Positions 11,840 to 53,513 of a stretch of DNA of 64,000 bases are shown here, piece after piece (position 1 is the first letter of the stretch; each line of letters begins with the position of its first letter). This stretch comes from Phototrophicaceae bacterium (lineage in GTDB: Bacteria; Chloroflexota; Anaerolineae; Aggregatilineales; Phototrophicaceae). The DNA lies in contig OZ220689.1 in NCBI GenBank assembly GCA_965116425.1, forward strand, positions 2,280,134 through 2,344,133, written 5' to 3'. The notes under the pieces are model-generated. The model had not been told where the DNA came from. It saw nothing but the letters and a program-made list of their open reading frames with translations, and made no database searches. Position numbers and translations under genes: made by a program.

Positions 11840-12790
11840 TTAGGTGTATAGTCCCGCATTAAGGTGGTATGGGTTTTGCTGAAATCGCTCCGGGGTTTCT
11901 CGCCAGCAATCACAGATGTATTCATAGGGGCTTCGCCCCTTCAGCGCCTTCAGCCTTTTGCCATAGTTGTAGGCTTGCAAGAACAACTCCAGGTGCTGAC
12001 GCAGTTCCTCATGACTTTGGTAAAAGTATCGATAGACCGTCTTCTCTTTGATACTCCGGTTCATGCGCTCGACTTGTCCGTTGGTCCAAGGATGATAAGG
12101 TTTGGTCAAGCGATGTTCAATCCCCTGCGCTTGGCATATTTTATCAAAGGCCAGCTTGCTTTTGCGCCCCGACCGCGCTTGATGGGTAAACTGAGTGCCA
12201 TTGTCGGTCAAGATGGTATGAATCTTGTAGGGTACGACTTCGATCAGCCGGCGCAGGAAGGCGCAAGCGTCCTCGCGTTTAGCGCTTTGACGCAGTTCAG
12301 CGAAGACAAACTTGGATGTCCGGTCAATGGCGACAAAGAGATAGAGCTTGCCCTGGTCAGTTCTGACTTGGCAGAAGTCCAGATGAAAGTAGCCGATGGG
12401 ATAGTTCTTGAAGCGCTTCTTCTTGGCCGGTTTGCTTTCCGATTCGGGCAGTCGGTTGACGCCATGCCGCTTGAAGCAGCGATGCAAGCTGGAGCGGGTC
12501 AGATGCGGTATGGTCTCTTGCAGGGCGTAGAGGCAGTCATCCAGGGGCAGCAGAGTCTTGATACGGAAGGCTAGGATGATATCTTCCTCTTGCTGGCTCA
12601 AGACGGTGGAGCGGGGATTCTTGGGACCCATCGGCCGGTCTTTGACGGAGGCGCGCTTCTTCCATTTCGCGACGGTTTTGGGGTTGATGCCGAAGCGCTT
12701 GGCCAGCTTGGCTATGCTCTCTTGACTATTTTGGATTTCTCGGCGGGTTGCCTCCGTCGTTGTGGCGCGCGGGTGTAGAACCTGTCCCAT
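11840..12790 (-). CDS. IS481 family transposase (HTH + rve integrase core)
   Basis: 316 aa. HTH region SIAKLAKRFGINPKTVAKWKKR, and DDE core (HLDFCQV..., TDNGTQFT, ...WTNGQVER). The ORF runs through the IR and stops at a TAA inside the flanking target duplication. Confidence 0.9.
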   Translation of the reverse strand: MGQVLHPRATTTEATRREIQNSQESIAKLAKRFGINPKTVAKWKKRASVKDRPMGPKNPRSTVLSQQEEDIILAFRIKTLLPLDDCLYALQETIPHLTRSSLHRCFKRHGVNRLPESESKPAKKKRFKNYPIGYFHLDFCQVRTDQGKLYLFVAIDRTSKFVFAELRQSAKREDACAFLRRLIEVVPYKIHTILTDNGTQFTHQARSGRKSKLAFDKICQAQGIEHRLTKPYHPWTNGQVERMNRSIKEKTVYRYFYQSHEELRQHLELFLQAYNYGKRLKALKGRSPYEYICDCWRETPERFQQNPYHLNAGLYT

Positions 12791-12843: not shown

Positions 12844-13490
12844 ATTAGGTCGCTTGGCGTTCGCGAATCACGCTATATTGCGGAAGACCTTCTTGGGGCT
12901 GAATCGAAAGCAGTGCCGCGGCGTCATCTTGGAAACTCCGCTCTTGGTAGCTTTTCCAGAGCGCGTTAAGAAAATCTCGCCGGTGCGACATTACAATTAC
13001 TTGAGCAAACTGGGCACTAACTTCCAGAATGCCCTCAATGACAGTTTGCTTCCGCACATCGTCAAGGCTGGTCGCTGGGTCGTCGAATACGAGTAGACTG
13101 CTATATGGGTTGACGCTCGCCCGCAGGCTTGACATAAAGAACGAAAATGCCAGCGCTCTGCGGTCGCCTTCGCTAAGCGCTTGACTAGGGCCAACAAGTC
13201 CTGAGTGGCTCTTGGTCGCGCGCATTGGTATTTTTTCGTCGAGCATACTTAGATAATAGCTTGCTTTCCATTTGCCCCCGCTTGACTGATGCGCAAGGTC
13301 TCGTATTTGGTATGCCACGCCAAATCTACGCAAATACGAATTCAGGTCTCGACTATAGTTTTGGAACACGTTCGAAAGTTCCTCTTTCAAAGCTCTTTGA
13401 AGAGACCTGACTTTGGCTTTCTCGGACTCCCGCAGCAACAATTCTTCGCTATATGAGTCGCAGAGCGCTGCGATTGCAGCAGAATACCTA

Positions 13491-14308
13491 GGTTCTGTTG
13501 ATATTTAGCATTGGCATTTTCATAAATGTGTAAAATAGTCTTATGACAAGCATAAGACTAGCTGACGAACAGTGGACGAAAATTCGGGATTTCCTGAAGC
13601 AAGACCCAAATGTTTATTTGGGTAACGAGGCCAATTGCCGCCTGTTCGTTGAAGCGGTGATATGGATATGTCGCAGCGGCGCGCAGTGGCGTTTGCTCCC
13701 AAGCGAATACGGCAAATGGAATTCGGTTTACAAACGCTATGCCGGCTGGTGCGAGAATGGCGTTTGGGAACGGATGATGGCAGCCTTCGCCGATGACCCG
13801 GATATGGAAAATGGGATAATCGACAGCACGATTGTACGTGCTCACCCCTGTGCCGCCGGCGCCCAAAAAAAGTGAGGAGCAAGCCTTGGGTCGCAGTCGC
13901 GGGGGTTTCAGCAGCAAGATACATGCCGCGGTTGATGCTTTGGGCAATCCCTTGCGCTTCCGCTTGAGTCCTGGCCAGGCTCACGACATCAATCAGGCCA
14001 AGGAGTTGGTGGAAGGCTTTGCCTTTCAGCGAGTTATCGCGGATCGGGGCTATGCCTCTCAAGAATTTGTGGACAGCTTGCTTGAAAGAGGCATAGAAGT
14101 GGTGATTCCACCGCATCCGCGTGCCAAAGAGCAGCGAGAATACGATAGATGGCTCTATCGCGAGCGGCATCTGGTGGAATGTTTCATCAACAAAATCAAA
14201 CATTTTCGCCGTGTCTTTTCTCGATTCGAGAAACTCGATTCATCTTATCTTGGTTTTCTGCACCTTGTCGGTACACTCATATGGTTACGATAGAATGTCA
14301 ACAGAACC
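13491..14308 (+). mobile_element. IS5-family (IS427/IS1031-type) insertion sequence (~818 bp)
   Basis: Terminal IRs GGTTCTGTTGATATTT and GGTTCTGTTGACATTC (reverse complement of the right end). TA duplication at 13489-90 and 14309-10, alternatively read as a CTAG target. Confidence 0.85.
13543..14293 (+). CDS. IS5 family transposase, two overlapping frames (orfA 13543..13875, orfB 13832..14293)
   Basis: orfA has ...WRLLPSEYGKWNSVYKRY.... orfB has LGRSRGGFSSKIHAAVD... and ADRGYAS.... The frames join by a +1 shift, equivalent to one fewer A, at the A7 run 13865-13871. Confidence 0.8.
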
Positions 14309-15721
14309 TAGACTTGGTGGCTTTGAGGTCTGTCAACTTCTTCTTCTGGGCATTAATATCTCTGGAATGCAACTCAGATTCAAGTTGGCGAATCACGACG
14401 TTTATGCGATCAATCTGCCGGTTGTAGATCTTTAAATTATGGACAATCCGCACCCATTTGTTGATCAGGCGCCGCGCCGTGTTGGGGAGCGGTACCTTCT
14501 CAAGCGGCAAAGCGCTCTTACTTTCTAACAGATCGCCGATTGCGGATTTTAGGCCGTCCAAGGTCTTTTGCATATTTCCGAAGTCAACTTCAATCAAATC
14601 CATTTCGGATAGCGGCGGACCTAGCTGATACAGCTGTCTCAAGTTTTGCAACGCGAAATCCCGATTTTGCTGCGTCGCATCGTCGATTCCAGAAAGCTGA
14701 CGCGGAAAATTCGCAATTCTGTTCTTGAGTCGTTTGTACTCGAGGCTAAACGCAGCCTTATAATGGTGGACTAGCACTGAGCCTTCGAGCGGCAGACCGC
14801 AAAACGGACAGGAATCGCTGTCGTCGGCGGCGTAATGGATGCCTTCTTCAATCCATGCGCGAAGTCTGGCGTTGGACTGAAACTTGGCGAGGTGCGAAGT
14901 TACGATTTCGACAGCGTCGTCCGCCATGTCGTCGATGGTAGTGTCTAGCAGCGACTCAAGATCATCGATAGGAAGTGTTGGAATTAGGAGTTCGTTCAAG
15001 GCAGACGCTCTCAAACGTTCAACGCTGTCGAGTTGCGAAACGATCTGAAGCTGGCGATTAAGTTTTGCTTGAATGTCCGCGCATGGTGGCAGTGCGAGAA
15101 ACCAGTCCAGATTCTCGTTATCGCTCAAGCCAAGATTCGGCTCAGGTATGACAGCGATGATACGAGACTTAAGTCGTCTAATCGTCCGGTTCCTGGATTC
15201 TATGGTGCGTTTGAGCTGTTGCTCTTCCTCAACAAGACTCACAGCGGAGCTGCCGACGATTATAGGAAAGAGTTTACGCTGGTGCTGAAGATCTACCTTT
15301 AGCCCAGAATAAATGTTTTCATCAATAAACCTTTCGTCAAAGATTGCCACCCTATCAAGGCCTTTGTTCCAGCGGTTAGAGCGAAACTCAAGGATGTGGC
15401 CGTTTGCCAGCTCCAAAGAGATTTCCTGGCTATTGATCCCGATCGTCTTTCGGGCCGCAAGACCACTATTTTCATCGGCAATCAACGACCTGAACATGTC
15501 TGTGAGCGTCGATTTGCCCAAACCATTTTCCGCGTAAATAAGGTTTAACCGTTTCAAGCGGATCGGGGGGCTCGGCCGAAAATCGAGAAATCTGCCTAGG
15601 CCACTGATTCCGTGAATTTTCGATATCATGGGCATGGACTCCACAACTGCGCAAGTCACGCAATTCACCGCGATTATACCAAACTAAGCGCCAGCAGGTA
15701 AATTGACCTTAGGTCTAGAAG

Positions 15722-15927
15722 CAGAGCAATCGCACCAGATTATTTTAACCACCGAGGACACCGAGATTTAACTCCTTTTCTGGCAAAAAGGAGGCAATGT
15801 AGGGGCGATTCTGTGAATCGCCCACGATATTCTCACTCTTTTCATGGGCGACACACAGTGTCGCCCCTACATCGTGGTAGATTTATGTGACATTCGGCAC
15901 ATAATTGGTTCTGGTGCGATTGCTCTG
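15722..15927. mobile_element. MITE (206 bp) with ISAs1-type terminal inverted repeats
   Basis: 18-bp perfect TIR CAGAGCAATCGCACCAGA / TCTGGTGCGATTGCTCTG. 10-bp target duplication GGTCTAGAAG (15712-15721 and 15928-15937). No coding capacity. Several internal hairpins. Confidence 0.85.
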
Positions 15928-16213
15928 GGTCTAGAAGTATGCTGCTCGCCATCCGAATTCCGAAAACTTTTTACTTGTATCCCCCCGTTTGATTGTGATA
16001 TATTTAACTATCGCAATTTCATGCGCTGGAATCGACTTGAAATCCTAACAGAATGCGTGGCAGTTTTGTCCTCGTGCTGCGGATTGAGACAGTTAAAATT
16101 CTTCTTGGTGAACCCGCTGGCTTTGAAATCCGAAGCGATAAGACCGAGTTTATTGGTGATGGCTTCGTTGACGCCCCCAGCCGTCCGTATTGTAGTCTGG
16201 CGCGGGTGATGGT

Positions 16214-17029
16214 TTAGGCTTGGTCTTTGGTTTTACGTGAGGCACAAAGCGGGGCAGCGCGGGCCGCCGACAGATCTGGATAGTGATGGCATAACAGGTC
16301 GTTGGCGTCGCCCTTCTCAGGTATGCCCGGTCCCGAGAACTGGCGATATTCCGCCTCGCCTGGCCAGCCCGCTTCGAGAAGCAGCGCCAGCAATTTTGCA
16401 GCGCCCTGCTCTCCGACCTTATCGTTGTCGGCATAGTAGACGAATTTCTTGACGCCGAGTTCATCCAGAAGGGCAGCGATGTCCTTGGGGATATTTGTAC
16501 TGCCGTAAATGCCGATGGCATTGCGTATACTCAGGGGGCGCAGCGACCAGACACCAAATTCACCTTCGACAATGTGGACTTCCCCGTGTGCGAGGGCGAT
16601 TGCGTGTATCAATTCAGCAAGTGTGCCGACATAGTGGAAAGGCTCATCTGTCTTCTCGCCTGAAAACCAGATTGACTTGCCGATCTTATTGCCATTGATG
16701 GTCGGTGGGTCTATGAAACGCCGGCGGCGTGCGCCGCGGCTGTCGTCTCTGCGCTTTTCGTGCCAGACGAGACAATATCTGCCGTAGTAGTCGTTGTATT
16801 CAATCCAGGCGCCGGCGGCCAACGCCGGTTTGATGATGCGACGAGCCGTGAGATAGGCTAACCATTCTGGATGATCTTGGATGCCGCATTTTCTCTGTCT
16901 GTTGTTCCGCCTGTAAGTCGGCAGCGCGCCTGGGTTTGTTAGCTGACGCAGGTAACCGGAACCGTCATCACGGATGAGTGCTGCCACGAGGTCACTTAAT
17001 AGGCGAGGATCAGCCTTTCCCTCGACCAA
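16214..17029 (-). CDS. Toprim domain protein (plasmid/phage primase-like), possibly 5'-truncated
   Basis: Toprim motifs HIVEGEFGVWSL, YYADNDKVGEQGAAK and KGDANDLL. Only a TTG start is available. The frame stays open 12 codons upstream with no start, and the N-terminus carries a second EG-type motif (ILLVEGKAD). Confidence 0.55.
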   Translation of the reverse strand: MVEGKADPRLLSDLVAALIRDDGSGYLRQLTNPGALPTYRRNNRQRKCGIQDHPEWLAYLTARRIIKPALAAGAWIEYNDYYGRYCLVWHEKRRDDSRGARRRRFIDPPTINGNKIGKSIWFSGEKTDEPFHYVGTLAELIHAIALAHGEVHIVEGEFGVWSLRPLSIRNAIGIYGSTNIPKDIAALLDELGVKKFVYYADNDKVGEQGAAKLLALLLEAGWPGEAEYRQFSGPGIPEKGDANDLLCHHYPDLSAARAAPLCASRKTKDQA

Positions 17030-17211
17030 AAGAATCGCGTCTGGCGGAAGGCGGTTGTTTGTCTTTCAGACACTGTTGCGGATGTCAGCTAGGGAAATGG
17101 GGTCAACATGGGGCTCCTGATAGCGTTGATAAGTCGTCGATGAGCCAGGAGTGTGGGGTAGTCCCCGTCCAGGTTAGCAGCTCCAGCTGCTGAACAGGGC
17201 GTTATTTCTAA

Positions 17212-17514
17212 CGCGCCACTCATTCCATTGTATCTACGGTTGACAATATCGATATCGTCGGTGTGGTGCCGGTGGCTTATGTGCCCAATACCGATCAAAA
17301 GGAATTCATGGCCGGGCTGCAGGAGAGCATCCCGCAGTATTTGACGCCGGTCCTGCGCCGCCGCGAAACGGTCATTGATGATGCCAGGCAATCGGGCTGC
17401 TCGATATTCAGCTACCGGCCGACCAGTTCATACCGCGCCAAAGCGCAACGCGAGAGCCGAGAAGACTATGTTTGCCTGGCAAAACATGTCATGCAACGTA
17501 TGAAGGAAGGATAA
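17212..17514 (+). pseudogene. ParA/MinD-type partition ATPase, C-terminal remnant
   Basis: Open frame ...VDNIDIVGVVPVAYVPNTDQKEF...LTPVLRRRETVIDDARQSGCSIFSYRP... resembles the last ~100 aa of ParA. There is no Walker A region upstream, only out-of-frame scraps. Confidence 0.5.
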
Positions 17515-17516
17515 CG

Positions 17517-17819
17517 ATGGCCAAGGACAAGCAGGGACAGGAACAGCTCAGCGCATTGTTTAGCCAGCGCTTCAAGGATCAGGATGCTGCGCCTGTAGAG
17601 GAGCGCGCAGTAGAAAAGCCAAGGCGTAAGCGGGGCAGGCCGCCGAAGGCAGTCCAGCGCAAAACGGTGTCGTTCTTTCTGATACCTAAGCTCGCCGAGC
17701 GCCTGGACGACGCGTACTATCAATGGAACGCGGGTTTATCCAAGGAAACACGCATCAGCCGCGCCGAGTTCCGCGAGATGGTGCTTGAAAAGGGCTTGAA
17801 ACAAATCCAAGATGAGTAG
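17517..17819 (+). CDS. Small ribbon-helix-helix (ParG/CopG-like) DNA-binding protein with AT-hook-like tail
   Basis: ATG at 17517 with GAAGGAAGG upstream. Basic tail PRRKRGRPPKA, then an RHH-like segment KTVSFFLIPKLAERLDDAYY. Starts 2 nt after the parA-remnant stop. Confidence 0.55.
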   Translation: MAKDKQGQEQLSALFSQRFKDQDAAPVEERAVEKPRRKRGRPPKAVQRKTVSFFLIPKLAERLDDAYYQWNAGLSKETRISRAEFREMVLEKGLKQIQDE

Positions 17820-17875
17820 GGTTGTCTACCTGCTGACCGCACATTGGCGGCCTTACTGCTGGCAAAGGACTTTCT

Positions 17876-20800
17876 GTGCCAAGAATCTTTGACAACATAT
17901 CGGATAAGCTGCTCACCGCGCTGCAGAACACGATGCAATCCGCTGACCAAGCGGATTTTTGTGTAGGCTATTTCAATCTCCGCGGCTGGCGACTGCTGCG
18001 AGCGGACATAGACCAGCTGGCAGGCGGTGATGAGGGCTACTGTCGCATACTGATCGGCATGAATCCCACGCCCCGCGATGAACTGCGTGAATATCTCAGC
18101 CTAAAAGCTCGCAAGCCGGTCGATCAGCAGCAAGTGATGCGGCGCAAACGCCAGATTGTCGAAGACTTCCGGCGCCAGCTGGCACTAGGCGCGCCTAACA
18201 ATGACGATGAGCAAGGACTTCGTGATCTCGTCGGGCAACTGCGCTCGGGCAAAGTGACGGTGAAGCTGTACTTGCGCGATTCGCTCCATGCCAAACTTTA
18301 TCTGATCCACAAGCAGGATTACAACACGCCCACCTTGGCCTTCCTCGGCAGCAGCAACCTGACCCTGGCCGGCCTATCCAAGCAAGGCGAGCTGAACACC
18401 GAAGTCAGCGACTACGACGCCTGTCAGAAGCTCAAGGCGTGGTTTGAAGAGCGCTGGGATGATCGCTGGTGCCTCGACATTACCGAAGACTTGATCGAGG
18501 TCATCGACAATAGCTGGGCGCGAAAAGATATGCTCACGCCTTACGAGCTATATCTGAAGATCGCCTATCACCTGGCGCAAGAAGCGCGCGCCGGGCTAAA
18601 TGAATTCAAGTTGCCGCGCGAATTTGCCGAGCAGCTGCTGGATTATCAGGCGGCCGCTGTACGCATAGCCGCCCACCATCTCAACACCCGCGACGGCGTT
18701 TTGCTCGGGGATGTGGTCGGGCTGGGCAAAACCCTGATGGCCACCGCCCTGGCAAGAATCTTCCAGGACGATCGCTCTTGGGACAGCCTGATTATCTGCC
18801 CGCCAAACCTTCAGCAGATGTGGCAGAAATATGTGGAAGATTATCGCCTCACGGCCAAAGTCGTCTCCCTTGGCATGGTGACCAGGGAATTGCCCGACCT
18901 GCGCCGTTACCGCATCGTGATCGTTGACGAAAGCCACAACCTGCGCAATCGCGAGACGCAGCGCTATCGAGCTGTTCATGACTACATCAGCACCAACGAA
19001 AGCCGCTGCATCTTGCTATCGGCGACGCCCTACAATAAGAATTACCTGGACCTGTCGGCGCAGCTGCGTTTATTCATCGGCGAAGAAGATGTGCTGGGCA
19101 TTCGACCGGAGCAATACCTGAAAAAGGTCGGCGAGGCACAATTCAAATACCAGTTCCCGACAGCTCATTCCCGTTCCATCGTTGCCTTTGAGAAAAGCGA
19201 ACACACTGACGACTGGCGCGATCTGATGCGTCTGTATCTGGTGCGCCGTACGCGCAGCTTCATCGAGAACAATTACGCTGAAGACGACCCTGTTACCGGG
19301 CGTAAATTCATGCAACTGCAGAGTGGAAAGCGCTTCTATTTTCCCCGCCGCGTCCCGAAAACCATTCCGCTAAAGGCAAGCCCGCAGTACGACCGGCTCT
19401 ATTCCGACCAAGTAGTTGAGCTGGTTAACGACCTGAGCCTGCCACGGTACGGCTTGGGTCAATATGTGGACGGCAAGGCAGCCGAGACAGCGAAGGCGGG
19501 CGAACAGCAGCAAATCGAGAACCTGTCCCGCGCTGGCAAACGCCTGATGGGCTTCTGCCGCACAAACCTCTTTAAGCGCCTGGAAAGCAGTGGTGCGTCC
19601 TTCCTAAAATCGGTGGACCGGCACATCGCGCGCAATTACGTCTTTCTCCACGCCATAGAGAACGACCTGGAGCTGCCTATCGGCTCGCTGGATGCCCATA
19701 TTCTGGATCCCGATACCCAAGACGAAGATAGCGATTCGATCTATGTCGCTTTGAGCTTGGAAAATGAGGGGAATTCGGATGATGTAACGGACGTGGAAGA
19801 TCTTGACGAGAATTATACCCAGCGCGCCCGCACGGCTTATGCTTTGTTCAGCGGCCGCTATAGACGGCGTTTCAAGTGGCTGCGCGCGTCCTTATTCGCC
19901 GATGCCTTGCGGAAGGAACTGCAAGAAGACATTGATCGCTTGACGGCGGTGATTGAGCTCTGCGGCGATTGGGATGTCGTCGAAGATACCAAGCTGGCTG
20001 CTTTACACGGACTAATCAGCCGCGATCATGCGGACGAAAAGGTGCTGGTCTTTTCCCAGTTCGCCGATACGATTCGCTACCTGCAGAGCGAACTGACTCG
20101 CCTGGGCACGGCGGAACTGGAAGCAGCCACCGGGCAACACGATAATCCGACCGCTTTGGCGCGGCGCTTCAGCCCTGTTAGCAACGAACTGAAGCGAAAA
20201 CCGGCGGATGAAATCCGGGTTTTGTTATCCACCGATGTGCTCAGTGAAGGGCAGAACCTGCAGGACAGCGCCATCGTCATCAATTACGATTTGCCTTGGG
20301 CGATCATCCGACTGTCACAACGGGCGGGCCGTGTCGACCGCATTGGGCAGAAAGCTGAGGAAATCCGCTGTTACTCATTCATGCCGGCGGATGGCGTGGA
20401 AGAGATCATTCGTCTACGCTCCCGGGTGCGGCAACGGCTGGAAGAGAACGGCGAAGTCGTTGGCTCCGATGAGCAATTCTTTGAAGATGACAGAACCGCC
20501 CAACAGCTGCGCGATTTATACACCGAGAAGTCTGGCATTCTCGATCTGGAAGCCGATAGCGAAGTTGACCTGTCGTCCTATGCCTGGCAAGAATGGGCCA
20601 ACGCCATCAAGGACAATCCGCAGCTGAAGAAAAAGATCGAGGAGTTGCCCGATGTGGTCTATTCGTCACGGCATTATCTGGGCTCTGTCGACCGCCCCCA
20701 AGGCGTGATCACTTATGTGAAATCGAGCGATGACACCGATGCGCTTGTGTGGCTGGACCAAGAAGCGGAAATCGTCACTGAGTCGCAATTGGCGATCCTG

Positions 20801-21235
20801 CGCGCCGCCAAATGCGAGCCGGACACGCCGACGCAGGCGCGACATCCGCGGCACCACGATCTGGTGCTCGCGGGAGTGCGGAAGACACAGGAAGCGGATT
20901 ATATCGCCGCCACCGGCGGGCAATTGGGACGCCCCAACAGCACGCGCCGCCAGACCTATGAGCGACTAAAAGGCTATGTCCAGGATCTGCCGCTGCTTCG
21001 CAATAGGGAGGGGCTGGAAGCGGCCATTGACGACATCTATCGCCATCCCCTGTTAGAATCGGCGCGCGACAAGCTGAACCGACAAATCCGCGCCGAAATC
21101 CAGGACGAGGACCTGGCGGAGCTGGTGATCGGCTTGTGGCAAGATGAGCGCCTGAGCCGAAAACAAGAAGGCGATGAGGAGCGGGAAGCGCGCATCCTCT
21201 GTTCACTGGGCTTATTCGACTTATCCGAGGAGTAG
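17876..21235 (+). CDS. PLD-family nuclease domain fused to SNF2-family helicase (1119 aa)
   Basis: Single HKD motif LHAKLYLIH...GSSNLT (His codon 18287-18289). SF2/SNF2 motifs DVVGLGKT, VIVDESHNLRN, LLSATPYNK, LLSTDVLSEGQNLQD and QRAGRVDRIGQ. About 280 aa of C-terminus is unassigned. Confidence 0.85.
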   Translation: MPRIFDNISDKLLTALQNTMQSADQADFCVGYFNLRGWRLLRADIDQLAGGDEGYCRILIGMNPTPRDELREYLSLKARKPVDQQQVMRRKRQIVEDFRRQLALGAPNNDDEQGLRDLVGQLRSGKVTVKLYLRDSLHAKLYLIHKQDYNTPTLAFLGSSNLTLAGLSKQGELNTEVSDYDACQKLKAWFEERWDDRWCLDITEDLIEVIDNSWARKDMLTPYELYLKIAYHLAQEARAGLNEFKLPREFAEQLLDYQAAAVRIAAHHLNTRDGVLLGDVVGLGKTLMATALARIFQDDRSWDSLIICPPNLQQMWQKYVEDYRLTAKVVSLGMVTRELPDLRRYRIVIVDESHNLRNRETQRYRAVHDYISTNESRCILLSATPYNKNYLDLSAQLRLFIGEEDVLGIRPEQYLKKVGEAQFKYQFPTAHSRSIVAFEKSEHTDDWRDLMRLYLVRRTRSFIENNYAEDDPVTGRKFMQLQSGKRFYFPRRVPKTIPLKASPQYDRLYSDQVVELVNDLSLPRYGLGQYVDGKAAETAKAGEQQQIENLSRAGKRLMGFCRTNLFKRLESSGASFLKSVDRHIARNYVFLHAIENDLELPIGSLDAHILDPDTQDEDSDSIYVALSLENEGNSDDVTDVEDLDENYTQRARTAYALFSGRYRRRFKWLRASLFADALRKELQEDIDRLTAVIELCGDWDVVEDTKLAALHGLISRDHADEKVLVFSQFADTIRYLQSELTRLGTAELEAATGQHDNPTALARRFSPVSNELKRKPADEIRVLLSTDVLSEGQNLQDSAIVINYDLPWAIIRLSQRAGRVDRIGQKAEEIRCYSFMPADGVEEIIRLRSRVRQRLEENGEVVGSDEQFFEDDRTAQQLRDLYTEKSGILDLEADSEVDLSSYAWQEWANAIKDNPQLKKKIEELPDVVYSSRHYLGSVDRPQGVITYVKSSDDTDALVWLDQEAEIVTESQLAILRAAKCEPDTPTQARHPRHHDLVLAGVRKTQEADYIAATGGQLGRPNSTRRQTYERLKGYVQDLPLLRNREGLEAAIDDIYRHPLLESARDKLNRQIRAEIQDEDLAELVIGLWQDERLSRKQEGDEEREARILCSLGLFDLSEE

Positions 21236-21241
21236 AACAAA

Positions 21242-24200
21242 ATGGCGCTGAACCGCACTAGAGCGCGAGAATATATGCAAGCATTCGAATTCGAAAACCT
21301 TCTAATAGAAATTGGGTGGGAGAGCGTTCCGCCAGCGCGGCCAGTGAATATTGGGAACACCGGCTACCAGTATCGCCTCATTTCGGAGACGGTATTTGAG
21401 GTGTTTCCAGTAAATCCCCGCTCCAACGCGCTGCCGGACGCCAGAACGCTGAAAAATATTCACAAGAACATCGAGAAAATATCGTTCGAAAACTTGATTG
21501 TCTTCCTCGATAATGACAAGATTAGAACACAAAGCATCTGGTATTGGGTCAAACGAGAGGGTAATAAAAAAACACCCAAGAAAACATTACTATTTTAAGG
21601 AACAGCCCGGCGACCTTTTCCTGAGCAAAATTGCAGGCATGGTCATCGAGATGGGCGACCGACGCTCCGACGGCAGCCTACCCATCACAGAACGCACCAA
21701 GCGATTTGCTGATTCCTTTGATATTCTGCCCGTCACCAAGCGCTTTTACAGCGAATTCAGCGGGCTGCGCGTCGACTTCATCAACCTGATTCAAGGCATC
21801 CCGCGCGAAGCCGACCGCAACTGGTACGCCTCGGTGCTGCTCAACCGGCTGATGTTCATCTACTTCTTGCAGAAGCGCGATTTCATCCAGGGTAACAGTA
21901 ATTACCTCGACGACAAGTTGGAGGAAAGCCGAAGACGCGGACGCGACCGCTACTACCAAGAATTCCTCGATGCGCTGTTTTTTGAGGGCTTTGCCAAGCC
22001 GGAACACGAACGCAGCGCCGAGGCAAAACGCTTGCTCGGGCCCATTCCCTACCTGAACGGTGGCTTATTCATCCGCCACCGCTTGGAACTCGATAACGTC
22101 GCCATCCAGATCCCCGACCGCGCCTTCGAGAATGTCCTGGACCTTTTCGGTCGCTATTCCTGGCATTTGGACGATACGCCGGGCGCGCGCGACAACGAGA
22201 TCAACCCCGATGTGCTGGGTTATATCTTCGAGAAATACATCAACCAGAAAGCCTTCGGCGCTTATTACACGCGGGGGGAGATCACCGAATACCTCTGCCA
22301 GCGCAGCATCCACAGCGTGATTCTGGAGAAGGTCAACCAGCATAGCGTCCGCCAATTCAGCGACTTGAGCGATGTGCTGATGCGGCTGGATGCCGAGCTA
22401 TGCCGCACGCTGCTGTTCACTGTCTTGCCCAAGCTGTCGATCCTCGACCCCGCCTGCGGCTCGGGCGCGTTCCTGGTGGCGGCGATGAATAACCTGCTCA
22501 ATATCTATGGCGCGGTCTTTGGGGCGATTGACCGGCTGAACGACAGCAACCTGCGGCGGCAGGCGGAAAAAATCCGGCGGGAGCATCCCTCCATCAATTA
22601 TTACATCCGCAAGCAGATTATCGTGAAAAACCTCTACGGCGTCGACATCATGGATGAAGCCACCGAGATCGCCAAACTGCGCCTCTTCCTGGCGCTGGTC
22701 AGCGTGGCGCAGTCGCTCGATGACCTGGAACCCCTGCCCAATATCGACTTCAATATCATGGCCGGCAACTCGCTGATTGGCTTGCTGAGCGTCGATGACA
22801 ATCGCTTTGATGAGGGCGCGCGCACGCAAGACATGCTCCAGCGCGTCAAAGCCCAGGATTACCAGCGCGCGCTAGCGGAGAAGAATCGCCTGATCAAGCT
22901 CTACCGCAAAACCGACAGCGCCTATTCCGATCACCTGCAAGACCTGCGCGGACGCATCAACGCGCAGCGCCACGACGCCCAGGGCGTTCTCAACGAGATC
23001 CTGCTGGACGACTTCCGCGCCTTAAAAATCCAGTACGAGGGTGCGCAGCTCAAAGGACGCGCGAAGAAACGCCCACTGCAGACAACCGACATAGAAGCCC
23101 TGAATCCCTTCCACTGGGGTTACGAGTTCGACGAAATCATCGAGGAGCACGGCGGCTTTGATGTCATCATCACCAACCCACCCTGGGAAGTCTTCAAGCC
23201 GCAAGACGAAGAATTCTTCGCCCAATATGACGACAGCATGCGCCAGAAAAGGGCGAACCGAGTCGACAAGAGGCGAATCAAGGCGCAACTGCTGGAAGAC
23301 GCCGATATAAGGCGCGAATATCTGCAATATCAAAGCGACTACCGCCATGTCAGCGCCTATTATCGCAGCGCCCCGCAATACCAGAATCAGATTTCGCGCG
23401 TGAACGGCCGCAAGCAAGGCAGCGACATCAACCTCTACAAGCTCTTCACCGAGCAGTGCTTTCGCCTGCTGCGGGAGAAGACGGCTATTAAGCCCGGCGG
23501 GGCTTGTGGCATCGTCATCCCATCGGGCATATACAGCGATTTGGGCACAAAACAATTGCGGCAAATGCTCTTTGAAAAAACCAAAGTCACGGGTTTGTTC
23601 GGTTTCGAGAACCGCAAAGCGATCTTTGAGGGCGTACATAAGAGCTTCAAATTCGTGGTGCTGTCAATCGAAAAAGGCGGGCAAACCCTCAGTTTCCCGG
23701 CCGCTTTCATGCGCCACGATGTCAAAGAGCTAGAGCAGTTTCCGGCTGAAGACAGCGTCAAGGTCAGCGTCGATCTCATCAAACGCTCGTCGCCTTCGTC
23801 GCTGTCGGTGACCGAATTCAAGGGCGCGCTGGATGTGGACATCGTCGAGAAGATGCTGCGCTTCCCGCTTTTGGGCGAAGAATTGCCCGACAAGTGGAAT
23901 GTGAAGCTAACACGCGAATTCGACATGACAAACGACAGCGACCTCTTCCATGACGCGCCGGGAGCGGGCAGACTGCCGCTTTACGAGGGCAAGATGATCT
24001 GGCAGTTCCAGCATGGCTACGCCGCGCCGCGCTACTGGATTGACGAGGCGGCTGGTCGGAAGCGTGTGCTGGGCAGGAAGGGTGAGGATGTCGGGCAGCG
24101 GCTTGATTATCAGATGTATCGGCTAGGTTTTCGGGATGTGGCTAGCTCGACCAATGAGCGTACGATGATTATGACGGTCCTTCCGCCACTAAATTTTGCA

Positions 24201-24677
24201 GGCAATACTGTACCTACTGCCAAAGCGATACACCACAATTCAGATATTCCTGATAACGTGTCGCAGCTCATTGTGTGCACTATTTCCAATAGTTACCTTG
24301 TAGATTATATTGCACGGCAAAAAGTTTCAGCGCACTTAAATTTTTTCTACGTTAGGCAACTCCCCATCCCACGCCTGATGCCGGGCGACCGCTTCTTCGA
24401 CTCTATCGCCCAGCGCGCCGCCCAGCTTATCTGCACGGCGCCGGAATATGACGACCTAGCGGCTGAGGTCGGGCTGGGCAGCCACCGCAATGGCGTGACC
24501 GATCCGGCCGGGCGGGCGAAGCTGCGCGCCGAGCTAGATGGCATCATCGCGCATATCTACGGTCTGACAGAAGCCGAATTCGCCCACGTGCTGGGCACAT
24601 TCCCGCTGGTGGACGCAGGGGTCAAGGCGGCGGCGATGGAGGCGTATCGGGATGTCGAGCGCGGCGCGGTGATGTGA
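21242..24677 (+). CDS. Eco57I/type-IIG-like N6-adenine DNA methyltransferase (~1144 aa), interrupted by a frameshift in an A7 tract
   Basis: ORFs 21242..21598 and 21498..24677 join as ...VKREGNKK-HPRKHYYFKEQPG... if the A7 run 21566-21572 were A6. Motif I is LDPACGSGAFLV and motif IV is NPPW (23175-23186). YYTRGEIT and GNSLIG are typical of this family. ATG lies 6 nt after the helicase stop, with GAGGAG as RBS. Confidence 0.8.
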
Positions 24678-24705
24678 GCGTCCGCTCGCGGGCAGGGCAA
24701 TATCA

Positions 24706-25118
24706 CAGAGCAATCGCACCAGATTATTTTAACCACCGAGGACACCGAGATTTGCCTCCTTTTCTGGCAAAAAGGAGGCAATGTAGGGGCGATTCTGTGA
24801 ATCGCCCACGATATTCTCACTCTTTTCATGGGCGACACACAGTGTCGCCCCTACAAGGCTTGATTGGTATTAGCGATGAATTCGCCGGAATTTTACCCCA
24901 CCCCCCGGCCCCCTCCCCGACGAGTCAGGGAGGGGGAGCTAAATTCTGCGAATATCATGGTTTTTTGATACTTTGTGTAGGTATTGACCCGGTATTCCAT
25001 ACGAAAACAGTTATACTACGGTTGGTTTTCTGTGTTCTTTGCAATACAAATCAAGCCTTACATCGTGGTAGATTTATGTGACATTCGGCACATAATTGGT
25101 TCTGGTGCGATTGCTCTG
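24706..25118. mobile_element. Second MITE copy (same family as 15722-15927) carrying a nested insertion; no target duplication
   Basis: Same 18-bp TIRs and near-identical arms as the first copy. The flanks (GCAATATCA and CGTAGATTA) do not match each other. Confidence 0.8.
24856..25058. mobile_element. Nested ~203-bp MITE-like insertion inside the second MITE
   Basis: It interrupts ...GTCGCCCCTACA|TCGTGG..., which is continuous in the first copy. Own IRs are AGGCTTGATTGGTATT and AGGCTTGATTTGTATT (reverse complement). TACA is duplicated at 24852-24855 and 25059-25062. Confidence 0.7.
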
Positions 25119-25289
25119 CGTAGATTAGGCGCTGCAATCGCTGGCTAGCGGAGTCAGGACGCCCTTTGCGCCAGCCCGATCTGACGTGGTTTCGTGGCTC
25201 TCAAACAGCTGAAGGCCTTGTCATTCGGCTAGTTCTAGTCGCTCAACATTGTGCTCGCGAGCAGCAGTCCCTTTAGCGGAATGGAATAT

Positions 25290-25318
25290 TTGACAAGCGA
25301 CAAGAGAAACGCTATAGT
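25290..25318 (+). promoter_or_regulatory. Sigma-70-like promoter upstream of the sugar ABC operon
   Basis: TTGACA (25290-25295), a 17-nt spacer, then TATAGT (25313-25318). Followed by TTGTAAACAG at 25324-25333, a possible operator. Confidence 0.5.
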
Positions 25319-25560
25319 TTGCGTTGTAAACAGCAAATTGTTAACTCGCATACAATTATCAGGTGCTAATTAGAAGAATGTATAGTATTTTCTTTCACGT
25401 AACTGCTTCTTCCAGTGTCTTCACGCGCGCCCCATCAGTTGCGAACCTATATGTCAACCATCCGGTCGTGCCGGGCCGGTTCGGCAAGAGATGCCGACGC
25501 TCATCGTCGATCGATTGATCGTGTGGCGATTCCGCTAAGTTGGATTTGATCGAGGTGAAT

Positions 25561-26343
25561 ATGGGTGCGCCGCAAGCAGAAGCAAGGGAGGCGTCCGCCG
25601 AGTCTAGAGGAGAAAAGCCCCTCTTGGTTGCGCGCAACATCGAAAAGGCCTATGGCACGGTACAGGCGCTTGGCAGCGCGCAAATCGACGTTAGAGCGGG
25701 CGAAATAGTTGCGCTGGTCGGCGACAATGGCGCTGGCAAGTCGACCTTGATCAAGGTGCTGTCAGGAGCGCACAAACCGGACGCGGGCGAAATCATCGTG
25801 CGCGGCCAGTCCGTCACGATCGATAACCCCAACGACGCCTTCGACTTAGGCATCGCCACTGTTTATCAAGACCTGGCGCTCCTGGCGACGCGCGACGTTG
25901 TCGCCAACTTGTATGTCGGACGCGAGCTAACCAGGAACGGAATCTTGGACCGGCGGCAGATGACCGCGGAGGCGAATCAGGTCGTGCGCCAGTTGAAGAC
26001 CAATCTGCCCTCCGTTCACACGCGCGTGCGTCACCTTTCCGGTGGGCAGCGGCAGGCGGTCGCCATTGCGCGGGTCGTGCATTTCGGCGCGGAAATCTTA
26101 CTGCTTGACGAGCCTACAGCAGCGCTCGGCGTTAAGGAAGCGCATGAAATGCTGACCTTGATTGAACACCTCAAGGAGCAAGACAAGGGCATAATCGTCG
26201 TTAGCCATAATTTGGCGCACGTATTCCGAATTTGCGATCGTATCACGGTGCTGCGTCACGGACGCACAGTGGGCACGCTAATCAAGGAAGAGACCGATTC
26301 CACCGAAGTCGTTCGTATGATCACTGGCGCCGATTTGCTTTAG
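25561..26343 (+). CDS. Sugar ABC transporter ATP-binding protein (single NBD)
   Basis: Walker A GDNGAGKST, signature LSGGQRQAVAIAR, Walker B LLLDEPT. ATG at 25561 with GAGGTG upstream. Confidence 0.85.
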   Translation: MGAPQAEAREASAESRGEKPLLVARNIEKAYGTVQALGSAQIDVRAGEIVALVGDNGAGKSTLIKVLSGAHKPDAGEIIVRGQSVTIDNPNDAFDLGIATVYQDLALLATRDVVANLYVGRELTRNGILDRRQMTAEANQVVRQLKTNLPSVHTRVRHLSGGQRQAVAIARVVHFGAEILLLDEPTAALGVKEAHEMLTLIEHLKEQDKGIIVVSHNLAHVFRICDRITVLRHGRTVGTLIKEETDSTEVVRMITGADLL

Positions 26344-52278: not shown

Positions 52279-53513
52279 CAGAGCAATCGCACCAAGAAAT
52301 GAAAGGTGAATAGAATGGGTTCATCAATACGGATGAGGAGAGCCCGAGATGAGCCCAAGTGGCATAGCGGAGGCCTTTGCCAGTTTAGAAGATCCGCGTC
52401 GCGAACATGGTCAATTACACCCGTTGCTGGATATCATCATCATCGCGATCTGCGCGGTGATCAGCGGCGCCGAGACCTGGGTGGACATTGTTGATTTTGG
52501 CGAGGATAAAGAGGAATGGTTAAGGGGATTTTTAGAGTTGCCTAACGGTATTCCTTCGCACGATACATTTGCCCGCGTCTTCCAACTATTAGACCCTCAG
52601 CAGGTACAGTTGTGCTACCAAGATTGGATTAGCAGCATCAAGCCAGTATTAGCTGAAGGCGATATTGTGGCAATAGACGGCAAGACGATGCGGCGCAGCC
52701 ATGATCGTAGGCAAGGAAAGAGCGCCTTGCATCTGTTGCATGCCTGGTCAGTGGAAGCCGGCTTGGTCTTGGGCAAGCGCGCTGTGGACGCGAAAAGCAA
52801 TGAGATACCTGAAATTCCCGAATTGCTGAAATTGCTGTATTTGAAAGGCTGTATCGTGACTTTGGACGCGATGGGCTGTCAGAAAGACATCGTGAAGTCT
52901 ATTGTTAGCGAGCACGGAGCGGATTATGTCATAGCCTTAAAGGAAAATCAGGGCAGTTTGTACGATGCAGCCCAGTCCCTTTTCGCTTATGCGGATGACC
53001 GCCATCCGCGCTTGATAGGTCAATATAGTCACAACGAAGAAATCAGCAAGCCGCGTGGTCGTGTCGAGCGCCGGGTCTGTGAAGTGATGACCGATGCCGC
53101 TGTCTTGAATGACTTAAGCCAGCAAGAAGGCTGGACGCGCTTGCAGTCGCTAGTCCGCGTCCAACATGCCCAATTACTGGATGGGCAGTGGCAAAACACG
53201 CAGACGCGCTATTTTATCTCCTCTTTACAAGGGAAGGATGCCAATCAACTCCAGCGAATAATTCGTTCGCACTGGCACATTGAAAATAAACTCCATCGGG
53301 TCTTGGATGTGACCTTTCGGCAAGACGACAGCCGTATTCGTGTAGGACACAGCCCAGAAAATTTCGCTGTGCTACAGCATATCGCCTTGGCTTTGCTCAA
53401 AAAACACCCCAAAAAAATCAGCCTGCGGCGCAAGCGATTACAGTCAGCGCGGAACGATAAGCTTCGATGGCAAATCCTCAAAGCATTTTCCGAATAGTGG
53501 TGCGATTGCTCTG
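52279..53513 (+). mobile_element. ISAs1-family insertion sequence (1235 bp)
   Basis: 16-bp perfect TIRs CAGAGCAATCGCACCA / TGGTGCGATTGCTCTG. 9-bp target duplication TGTGCCTGC (52270-52278 and 53514-53522). Confidence 0.9.
52349..53497 (+). CDS. ISAs1 family transposase (H-repeat-associated type)
   Basis: 382 aa. N-terminal [39 protein letters not shown], and a DDE region (VAIDGKTMR..., TLDAMGCQK..., HWHIENKLH). Confidence 0.9.

Follow-up and report, generated by a model that had tools for sequence, protein, structure and literature searches.

Two adjacent genes in the genome of a Phototrophicaceae bacterium raise the question of whether a nuclease-motor protein and a DNA methyltransferase encoded side by side form a single defence machine, and to which kind of system such a machine would belong. 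They occupy positions 17876-24677 of a stretch of 64,000 nucleotides (assembly GCA_965116425.1, contig OZ220689.1, positions 2,280,134 to 2,344,133), hereafter the window, and encode a phospholipase D (PLD)-type nuclease with an HKD motif fused to a Swi2/Snf2 ATPase (hereafter the helicase), followed by an N6-adenine methyltransferase. The original prediction had presented the pair as a candidate undescribed defence system, ATP-dependent and resembling restriction-modification (R-M). The R-M-like interpretation was well supported, an ATP-dependent role of this kind being the best reading of the locus, which probably belongs to a widespread family of ATP-dependent R-M systems made of two components. 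For this system we infer a defence function, physical coupling of the two proteins, methyltransferase-dependent cutting and long-range cleavage.

Conservation of the gene pair across genomes

Relatives of the helicase were searched for in species-representative genomes, of which at least 589 were confirmed to encode one, and gene neighbourhoods were compared at 80 loci (loci and proteins of relatives are designated below by L and P numbers, respectively). The relatives span Chloroflexota, Cyanobacteria, Latescibacterota, Poribacteria, Acidobacteriota, Verrucomicrobiota, Desulfobacterota, Proteobacteria and other phyla, and include Chloroflexota metagenome-assembled genomes (MAGs), the best named locus being that of a Phototrophicaceae MAG (80%). 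In 72 of the 80 loci, distributed over many phyla, the helicase gene was followed downstream by a methyltransferase homologue on its own strand, and the gap between the two genes was at most 100 nt in 46 of these 72; the neighbourhood expected by the original prediction was therefore confirmed. Among the eight remaining loci, two had the methyltransferase upstream, and three ended less than 150 nt from the helicase gene and were uninformative. Both proteins had thousands of homologues, with helicase and methyltransferase matches sharing contigs. In the window, a ribosome-binding site (GAGGAG, 21227-21232, + strand) lies within the last helicase codons, and the methyltransferase ATG at 21242 follows the helicase stop by 6 nt. 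With conservation of the pair across phyla, and with this ribosome-binding site and 6-nt gap, the two genes form one unit; given the 72 of 80 loci, their pairing is far beyond chance.

DUF499, DUF3780, DrmA/B, PglZ and BrxC were detected neither in the 64-kb window nor among the conserved neighbours of the 80 loci, and the same was true of a Res-type partner, extending to the whole set of loci the absence of DrmA/B, PglZ/BrxC and Res that had been pointed out for the window. Because these components were missing from the neighbourhoods, the two-gene form is the normal state of the family rather than a truncation. Clustering of the flanking open reading frames (ORFs) of the 80 loci revealed a single other recurrent gene, encoding a DprA-like protein of ~220 residues and present in 27 of the 80 loci; the statement that the system consists of exactly two polypeptides accordingly does not extend to the entire family, about a third of the loci having this additional gene. 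No flank synteny was found, not even where the helicase of the other locus is 80-84% identical, so that neither the insertion site nor the borders of the island could be defined; this lack of shared flanks between such similar helicases indicates that the module moves horizontally.

The DprA-like gene (PF02481, E = 4e-6, under the cut-off) was found downstream of the methyltransferase gene on the same strand (e.g. L021 16714-17349, L039 16627-17301 and L009 10323-10973) and was absent from the window. It was often separated from the methyltransferase gene by 0-5 unrelated, highly variable genes, an arrangement resembling a cargo slot.

The HKD/PLD-Snf2 subunit

The helicase gene (17876-21235, + strand) starts with GTG, ends with the stop codon TAG (21233-21235) and, from its ORF and translation, encodes a protein of 1119 residues. 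All coordinates and motifs originally assigned to the two genes proved exact on recheck, and the domain anatomy was as described. The protein possesses a single HKD motif (LHAKLYLIH, 18284-18310, H138 being encoded at 18287-18289; GSSNLT, 18347-18364), followed by the Snf2 motor core (18719-20350) with its Walker A motif GLGKT (18719-18733), DESH (18926-18937), LLSATP (19013-19030) and motif VI QRAGRVDRIGQ (20318-20350), and by a C-terminal part of ~260 residues (aa 860-1119; 20453-21232) that is conserved in the family, all on the + strand. The expected Pfam families were all recovered, with PLDc_2 (5.8e-10) and RE_NgoFVII (residues 115-194), SNF2-rel_dom (3.7e-13) and Helicase_C (4.4e-15) in the helicase and Eco57I in the methyltransferase (see next Section), while residues 860-1119 of the helicase had no match in the Pfam search, consistent with their earlier description as unassigned. 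The best PADLOC model for the helicase was 'HKD+Snf2' (2.4e-48).

More than 8000 homologues of the helicase were retrieved, many of them 57-90% identical across the full length, including more than 100 with 100% coverage in that range of identity. Residues invariant in 43 homologues were distributed over the HKD part (H138, A139, K140, G158, S159, S160, N161, L162), the motor (G282, L283, G284, K285, T286, D351, E352), motif VI (Q815, R816, G818, R819, D821, R822, G824, Q825) and the C-terminal domain (W907, G943, W959, C980, H994, G1014-G1015, C1109, G1112). In the AlphaFold model (pLDDT, a predicted score on the local distance difference test, of 73), this C-terminal part comprises a beta-sheet (928-968) and a helical bundle, with pLDDT values of ~80-90. 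The best fold matches of the model in the PDB were Swi2/Snf2 ATPases (SRCAP, RapA, Chd1, CSB and Rad54), SauUSI not being among the top 50, and a search by sequence for relatives of solved structure returned generic Snf2/DEAD proteins only. The motor is thus of the true Swi2/Snf2 type. No DUF3427, SRA or EVE reader domain was found in the helicase by Pfam.

Nucleases of the HKD/PLD type are metal-independent and require dimerisation, and where each chain carries a single HKD motif, as in Nuc and BfiI, a dimer is needed to build one active site. By analogy, two helicase chains probably dimerise, one PLD active site resulting from each pair. In the structure of MtsD, the HKD-SF2 protein of the MANTIS system, one active site is made up by two single-HKD chains (MANTIS preprint).

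The methyltransferase subunit

The second gene (21242-24677, + strand) encodes an M/S subunit consisting of a gamma-class N6-adenine methyltransferase of the MmeI/Eco57I type, and is frameshifted as assembled. It is split into two ORFs, 21242-21598 (118 aa) and 21498-24677 (1059 aa), by a +1 frameshift at a run of seven A (21566-21572, + strand). Removal of one A restored a methyltransferase of 1144 residues aligning end to end with intact homologues of 1130-1160 residues. The repaired junction (A6) reads REGNKKHPRKHYYFKEQPGD and is equal in length to REDNRKRPRPHEYWKEQPGD of locus L001, and the repaired protein aligned without a gap at the break with both L001 and L002. Because of this equality in junction length with L001, A6 is taken as the ancestral state and the window as carrying a +1 insertion. 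The length of ~1144 residues originally proposed was therefore valid after correction of the A-tract, the weight of the frameshift having been underestimated. The public gene call for the methyltransferase of this genome (P0121) is a product of 1012 residues which starts after the N-terminal domain and lacks the N-terminus.

The catalytic core (22443-23186, + strand) contains motif I (LDPACGSGAFLV, 22443-22478) and motif IV (NPPW, 23175-23186). As motif I (LDPACGSG) precedes NPPW, the enzyme belongs to the gamma class. The residues of both motifs were invariant or nearly so among 57 family members and among 26 closer homologues. The catalytic motifs of both proteins were intact, no second lesion was present besides the A7 run, and from their conservation these motifs appear to be under strong purifying selection. 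Pfam searches identified MmeI_Mtase (9.1e-11) and Eco57I (5.2e-21), both above the cut-off, as well as DUF7814, with MmeI_hel remaining below its cut-off (20.5 bits versus 27). The best PADLOC model was the REBASE-derived Type IIG model REase_MTase_IIG (PDLC03628; 5e-111, residues 1-364), and TIGR02987, the Alw26I/Eco31I/Esp3I methyltransferase family, matched residues 614-1044 under its cut-off. No relative of solved structure matched the methyltransferase by sequence.

The hallmark of the family is the N-terminal region of ~190 residues (21242-21812, + strand), composed of an alpha/beta domain (aa 1-120) and the first helices, hereafter the N-domain. A profile of ~200 residues built on it recovered 1339 clusters at 50% identity, and among the 150 best matches listed nearly all had the domain in N-terminal position, the complete proteins having ~950-1500 residues. 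Among plasmid methyltransferases, it was present (alignment from residue 1) only where a close helicase homologue adjoins, and MmeI-like, PglX-like and lactococcal methyltransferases aligned only from about residue 156. On the basis of this co-occurrence, the N-domain is proposed to couple the methyltransferase to the HKD-Snf2 protein. Its AlphaFold model (pLDDT 84) had an alpha/beta fold for which Foldseek returned no PDB match (best E 2e-3, TM ~0.2), and profile-profile comparison (hhalign) with the N-termini of haloarchaeal MmeI-like proteins detected no homology, only the spacer helices 156-190 being aligned. Both features that define the unnamed family of HKD-Snf2 proteins paired with N-domain methyltransferases, the helicase type and the adjoining same-strand methyltransferase with the N-domain, were present at the window locus, where the frameshift cuts off the N-domain from the remainder of the methyltransferase.

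The possibility that the N-domain is a degenerate PD-ExK nuclease of the MmeI type was considered, as D90 and W102-V-K104 have an MmeI-like spacing, and it was kept as speculation only. It is countered by the absence of any nuclease Pfam, Foldseek match or hhalign link other than the spacer helices, in line with the earlier remark that the methyltransferase has no nuclease fold, and an invariant W102 occupies the position where, reading the spacing from the sequence alone, the ExK glutamate would fall.

The C-terminal ~480 residues (23220-24674, + strand) form the presumed target-recognition region, distinguished by its divergence compared with the core. Across the family, the median pairwise identity was 23% for residues 661-1060 versus 57% for residues 191-660, and this fast divergence relative to the core is the behaviour expected of a specificity module. 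Two unrelated C-terminal subtypes of the methyltransferase were found paired with equally similar helicases. Following the precedent of MmeI and of the BREX methyltransferase PglX, the region is presumed to be the target-recognition module. A subset of the methyltransferase homologues (~1300 aa; P0181, P0187, P0188, P0190, P0192 and others) possessed an additional PF04326 domain (AlbA_2, 'putative DNA binding').

Comparison with characterised systems

The description of the pair as undescribed and impossible to place was not upheld, as PADLOC models exist for both proteins, similar pairs were reported on pLd8 in 2018 and by Milman et al. in 2023, slr6047/slr6050 of Synechocystis are homologous, and the MANTIS system follows a comparable logic. 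For the two-gene family with the N-domain, the literature on PLD-SNF2/HKD-SNF2 pairs yielded neither a name nor a functional test.

On pSYSX of Synechocystis sp. PCC 6803 (L081), slr6047, annotated as a 'helicase-related protein', was 47.5% identical to the window helicase over the full length, and slr6050, annotated as a 'DNA methyltransferase', was ~35% identical to the window methyltransferase over the N-domain and core, with a divergent C-terminal region. The gene order and strand are those of the window pair, with the difference that VapBC is inserted between the two genes (L081 11487-12120) and a DUF2513 gene follows. From these alignments, slr6047/slr6050 can be considered a true homologue of the window pair. 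Slr6050 corresponds to M.Ssp6803IV, with GAm6AGGC as its tentative site; a knockout of slr6050 failed to segregate (Hagemann and colleagues, PMC6105098). As the complement GCCTTC contains no adenine, the modification would necessarily be confined to one strand. The same paper treated slr6050 as an orphan-like methyltransferase, with no occurrence of 'helicase' or 'slr6047' and no restriction assay. Just downstream on pSYSX (L081 15924-18545), a set of ThiF/E1, E2/UBC and multiubiquitin genes was observed, which forms a defence-type cluster for ubiquitin-like conjugation, the region itself being a defence island.

Among characterised systems, MANTIS (Gao_RL / Gao_29; BREX-related type 2) appears to be the closest analogue, with what looks like the same effector logic. 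It consists of four genes, MtsA-MtsB-MtsC-MtsD. Phages and plasmids are restricted by MtsD, an HKD protein with a superfamily 2 (SF2) motor, together with MtsC, a hemimethylating methyltransferase that provides the specificity; ATP and the orientation of the sites are both decisive for restriction, MtsA and MtsB are needed as well, and cleavage by MtsD was not reconstituted in vitro (MANTIS preprint). Rakesh and Krishnan (2026) likewise defined BREX-related type 2 systems around DUF499, with an HKD-Snf2 protein as the effector. The window pair shares with MANTIS the HKD/PLD domain at the N-terminus of an SF2 ATPase (as in MtsD), the N6-adenine methyltransferase (as in MtsC) and possibly a small Arc/CopG regulator (MtsR), which is optional in MANTIS. 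It differs by the absence of MtsA, a DUF499 AAA+ loader of the ORC/Cdc6 clade, from the window and the 80 loci, by the absence of MtsB, a small type-2-specific DUF protein, from the window and the conserved neighbours, and by the family-specific N-domain of its methyltransferase. In addition, the helicase-nuclease is the last component, after the methyltransferase, in the BREX-related type 2 systems as given in the MANTIS preprint and by Rakesh and Krishnan, whereas it comes first in the window. The window helicase scored 160 bits against NCBIfam NF042964 (cut-off 1100), a model that may or may not represent MtsD.

In Lactococcus, the genes orf33/orf34 of L. lactis pLd8 encode a protein with PLD, SNF2 and Helicase_C domains beside a methyltransferase classified by REBASE as 'Type IIG' and without a restriction domain; its authors suggested a nuclease that works in trans and resides in the helicase protein, and pointed out a resemblance to DISARM (PMC6098607). 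Pairs from pLd8 and L. cremoris pJM1F have the same helicase to methyltransferase order as the window, but their methyltransferase is 25% identical only from residue ~164, so that it lacks the N-domain and represents a distant relative only. The pJM1F locus (L085 1650-10143) contained a distant helicase of 1233 residues, an N-6 methylase, an inverted TaqI-like specificity fragment and an Mpi invertase; its specificity looks to be switched through inversion of DNA and not through slippage at homopolymers. Milman et al. (2023; PMC9881135) also listed Type II R-M coding sequences that have a PLD + SNF coding sequence next to them.

Type ISP enzymes (LlaGI, LlaBIII) recognise asymmetric sites, methylate one strand, translocate at the expense of ATP and cleave on head-to-head collision (PMC3874165). 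They present a nuclease, an SF2 translocase, a gamma-class methyltransferase and a target-recognition domain in the same order as the window pair, but in a single polypeptide with an Mrr-like PD-(D/E)xK nuclease, whereas the window has two polypeptides, an HKD/PLD nuclease and a Snf2 motor; its two genes are separated by a stop codon and an own ribosome-binding site, and the same split was found in 72 loci. Class 1 DISARM likewise combines an SNF2 ATPase (DrmD), an Eco57I-type methyltransferase (DrmMI) and a PLD nuclease (DrmC). The core components DrmA, a DUF1998-associated helicase, and DrmB (DUF1998) were absent from the 64-kb window and from the conserved neighbours of the 80 loci, and PLD is fused to SNF2 instead of forming a separate DrmC. 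DISARM models remained under their cut-offs (NF038317, 133 bits versus 610; NF038318, 81 versus 950), and matches to the NCBIfam models of BREX PglX were also far under threshold.

MmeI-type IIL/IIG enzymes resemble the window methyltransferase in their MmeI_hel and MmeI_Mtase families, their size of ~1100 residues and their C-terminal target-recognition region, and Cj0031 of C. jejuni resembles methyltransferases of relatives in its poly-G phase variation; the window methyltransferase differs in having no recognisable PD-ExK nuclease and in being always accompanied by an HKD-Snf2 gene. SauUSI also has an N-terminal PLD domain followed by an SF2 helicase and works as a dimer, but its DUF3427 domain, absent from the window pair, reads 5-methylcytosine, and it has no methyltransferase partner. 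In CglI and NgoAVII, the PLD nuclease and the SF2 motor are separate proteins and the partners are C5 methyltransferases. Compared with Type III systems, the methyltransferase has a gamma-class motif order instead of that of a beta-class Mod, and an HKD nuclease takes the place of the PD-(D/E)xK of Res. Membership in MANTIS, DISARM, Type ISP, Type III or SauUSI was rejected, as at least one defining feature was missing in each case, and partial PADLOC matches to PbeA, HmaA, DpdE, ZorD and BrxHI/II, which covered the PLD or helicase lobes only, were attributed to shared domains and not to membership. The two-gene family would represent an unnamed, two-component form of restriction that is ATP-dependent and based on methylation, and its logic comes nearest to that of Type ISP and MANTIS.

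Two further arrangements were encountered at more distant loci. On PL47 of Haloquadratum walsbyi (L086 2572-7545), a methyltransferase of 1194 residues annotated as MmeI was convergent with a 'phospholipase D-like domain-containing protein' of ~1220 residues, this haloarchaeal theme of PLD and MmeI-like proteins having a different N-domain and orientation. A plasmid of Acinetobacter gerneri (L082 8827-19610) carried a distant HKD-helicase (26%), DUF4391, a site-specific methyltransferase and a DEAD/DEAH helicase, a four-gene set adjoining a Tn7-like TnsA/TnsB/TniB/TniQ module.

Homopolymer tracts in the methyltransferase genes

Poly-G/C tracts were found within the methyltransferase gene at differing positions in five related loci (L003 15920-15937, G15 or longer; L035 ~16339, C11; L041 ~6151, C17; L076 ~15089, C15; L063 ~16636, G8), and none within the helicase gene. 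The tract coincided with a frame break in L003, where the helicase ORF was full-length, and in L035, while the methyltransferase ORF was intact despite the tract in L041 and L076. Type III mod genes and the Type IIG enzyme Cj0031 are known to show this kind of pattern. From the sequences, it looks like recurrent phase variation of the subunit responsible for specificity and methylation. Tracts restricted to the methyltransferase would be tolerable only if cutting depends on this subunit, and their distribution supports a model like that of Type III, Type ISP or MANTIS. The A7 run of the window is short for a phase switch, and three other runs of at least 7 in long ORFs of the window left their frames unbroken. 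The copy in the window is possibly off or crippled, whether by phase-like switching, decay or assembly error.

Proposed mechanism and competing explanations

In the mechanism proposed for the two-component system, the methyltransferase would recognise a short asymmetric site and methylate one adenine on one strand as the self mark. On unmodified DNA, the methyltransferase bound to its site would recruit or activate the nuclease through the N-domain, and translocation by the motor would allow distant sites to communicate, which would make hemimethylated asymmetric sites usable for self/non-self discrimination. The PLD site would then cut, by the same logic as in Type ISP, Type III and MANTIS MtsC/MtsD, without the loaders MtsA/MtsB. 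This R-M-like reading is supported by MANTIS, where restriction of phages and plasmids by an HKD-SF2 protein and a hemimethylating methyltransferase was shown experimentally, and by the defence-island context together with the lack of flank synteny with close relatives. A more specific version, in which the family is a distinct minimal class of ATP-dependent R-M where the N-domain directly loads or licenses a dimeric HKD-Snf2 protein and the system is phase-switched through the methyltransferase tracts, is an evenly balanced proposition.

Several points weigh against the two-component R-M reading. No member of the exact HKD-Snf2 and N-domain family is known to restrict anything, and nuclease activity was not reconstituted even for MtsD of MANTIS. 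The coupling role of the N-domain is drawn from co-occurrence, and the domain has no recognisable fold relative. MANTIS needs MtsA and MtsB for the loading of its methyltransferase, and a two-gene system would have to manage without them. The unsegregated slr6050 knockout suggests that the nuclease can be toxic without full-length methyltransferase, which conflicts with strictly methyltransferase-dependent restriction; this conflict may be resolved by a leftover N-terminal fragment or by polar effects. Finally, the window methyltransferase gene is broken and the nearby gene matching the PADLOC candidate PDC-S06 is disrupted, so that this copy may be dead.

The last point leads to the alternative that the copy is a decaying remnant, its frameshift being real and fixed, its methyltransferase non-functional and the locus inert in this genome. 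This alternative, tentative and somewhat short of an even chance, would explain the +1 frameshift at A7, the shortened 1012-aa product of the deposited gene call (P0121) and the splitting of the adjacent PDC-S06/AAA_13 gene by an insertion of ~850 bp beside an IS3-type transposase, and the three other runs of at least 7 that keep their frame imply that the assembly is not riddled with homopolymer errors. Conversely, the helicase ORF and every catalytic motif in both genes are intact with no second lesion, the same picture could stem from the assembly of the MAG having one homopolymer wrong by a single base, and the tract-linked on and off states of relatives suggest reversible switching rather than decay. 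That the two genes are instead independent systems, a self-contained Type IIG/IIL methyltransferase with its own N-terminal nuclease beside a Type IV HKD-Snf2 protein that resembles SauUSI and would attack foreign modified DNA, is unlikely. The Type IIG restriction enzyme-methyltransferase model selected by PADLOC, the weak HSDR_N-like similarity reported in Slr6050 by the Synechocystis authors (PMC6105098), the conserved D90 and K104 with their MmeI-like spacing and the SauUSI-like structure of MtsD would fit it, but W102 stands at the would-be ExK glutamate, the N-domain has no Pfam, Foldseek or profile-profile link to any nuclease, and the helicase has none of the DUF3427, SRA and EVE domains and folds like Snf2 remodellers, with SauUSI outside the top 50. 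The near-obligate gene order and the confinement of the N-domain to the pairing argue for one machine.

Two further alternatives are less probable still. The pair could be a truncated or minimal member of Class 1 DISARM or of MANTIS/BREX-related type 2 systems, with the other parts lost or located elsewhere, since the domain vocabulary is common to systems of these types and partial matches were obtained with profile models of DrmD (PADLOC 7e-32; NCBIfam 133 bits), of DrmMI (1.8e-25) and of the NCBIfam 'phospholipase D-like domain-containing anti-phage protein' (160 bits); yet these scores are far under the curated cut-offs (610 for DrmD, 1100 for NF042964), and the absence of DrmA/B, DUF499, DUF3780, PglZ and BrxC from the window and the neighbours of the 80 loci makes this very improbable. 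An essentially epigenetic or DNA metabolism role, in which a phase-variable methyltransferase would control a regulon with a remodeller-like partner, is equally hard to credit: the tracts in the methyltransferase genes do resemble phasevarions, the Snf2 fold has its matches in RapA and chromatin remodellers, and slr6050 behaves as essential in Synechocystis, but the motor is fused to a nuclease whose HKD motif is invariant, the pair is patchy, horizontally mobile, carried on plasmids and found in defence-island contexts, and its specificity region evolves fast.

Under the two-component R-M reading, the window copy is an ordinary family member, probably switched off. The cleavage step of methylation-based BREX, DISARM and MANTIS is poorly understood, and the family could serve as a minimal two-protein model for it. 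Should the more specific version with direct loading through the N-domain be true, the system would dispense with the AAA+ loader proteins found in MANTIS and BREX, and would provide the simplest model of how one-strand methylation leads to self/non-self discrimination, in the genetically tractable Synechocystis 6803. As annotation tools label the methyltransferase as a self-contained Type IIG enzyme, the partner helicase is expected to be overlooked. Recognising the pair would correct annotations such as that of slr6050 as an orphan 'essential' methyltransferase, would account for methyltransferases of this kind being refractory to deletion, and would provide genome surveys with a further candidate phase-variable defence system.

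Genomic surroundings of the pair

A small ORF encoding 100 residues from its ATG (17518-17819, + strand; mechanical ORF 17472-17819) precedes the helicase gene. It possesses an AT-hook-like RKRGRPPK, for which the Pfam AT_hook match was sub-threshold only, followed by the ribbon-helix-helix-like 'TVSFFLIPKLAERLD', and it was kept 5' of the helicase gene in the closest relatives (L004, 63% over 49 aa; L001, 35% over 63 aa), many other loci having unrelated ORFs of 85-130 residues at the position just upstream of the helicase. By analogy with MtsR in MANTIS, the product of this ORF is a possible transcriptional controller of the operon.

Further upstream, the AAA_13 ATPase gene matching PDC-S06 (12845-15668, - strand) is interrupted, leaving an N-part at 14298-15668 and, separate from it, a C-part at 12845-13441, its insertion of ~850 bp carrying a 220-aa ORF without a family match, and it is adjoined by the IS3-type rve transposase (11840-12790). 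Between this remnant and the helicase operon lie a Toprim-like protein of 271 residues (16214-17029, - strand) and two small ORFs without a family match (17089-17391, - strand, and 15844-16209, + strand). The mobile-element-rich island put forward by the original prediction was thereby substantiated by the transposase, the interrupted PDC-S06/AAA_13 gene and the Toprim-like gene, and the pair sits in a decaying island of defence genes and mobile elements. Together with a second transposase (DDE_Tnp_1 and DDE_Tnp_1_assoc; 52349-53497, + strand) located among sugar-metabolism genes, the window contains at least two insertion sequence families.

A promoter and terminator scan of positions 17000-25600 gave nothing convincing for the operon, and the terminator count was no better than in shuffled sequences. 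An ORF overlapping the methyltransferase stop (24674-25081, 135 aa) was examined as a third operon gene and rejected, having no Pfam match and no homologue in the 80 loci; it is probably non-coding, in a region full of hairpin- or repeat-like sequence. A stretch of ~860 bp after the methyltransferase gene (24680-25540) was non-coding and contained GC-rich hairpins (e.g. 24780-24850 and 24895-24935). It also included a near-consensus sigma-70-like promoter (25290-25318; TTGACA, 17 nt, TATAGT) situated ahead of a sugar ABC transporter operon.

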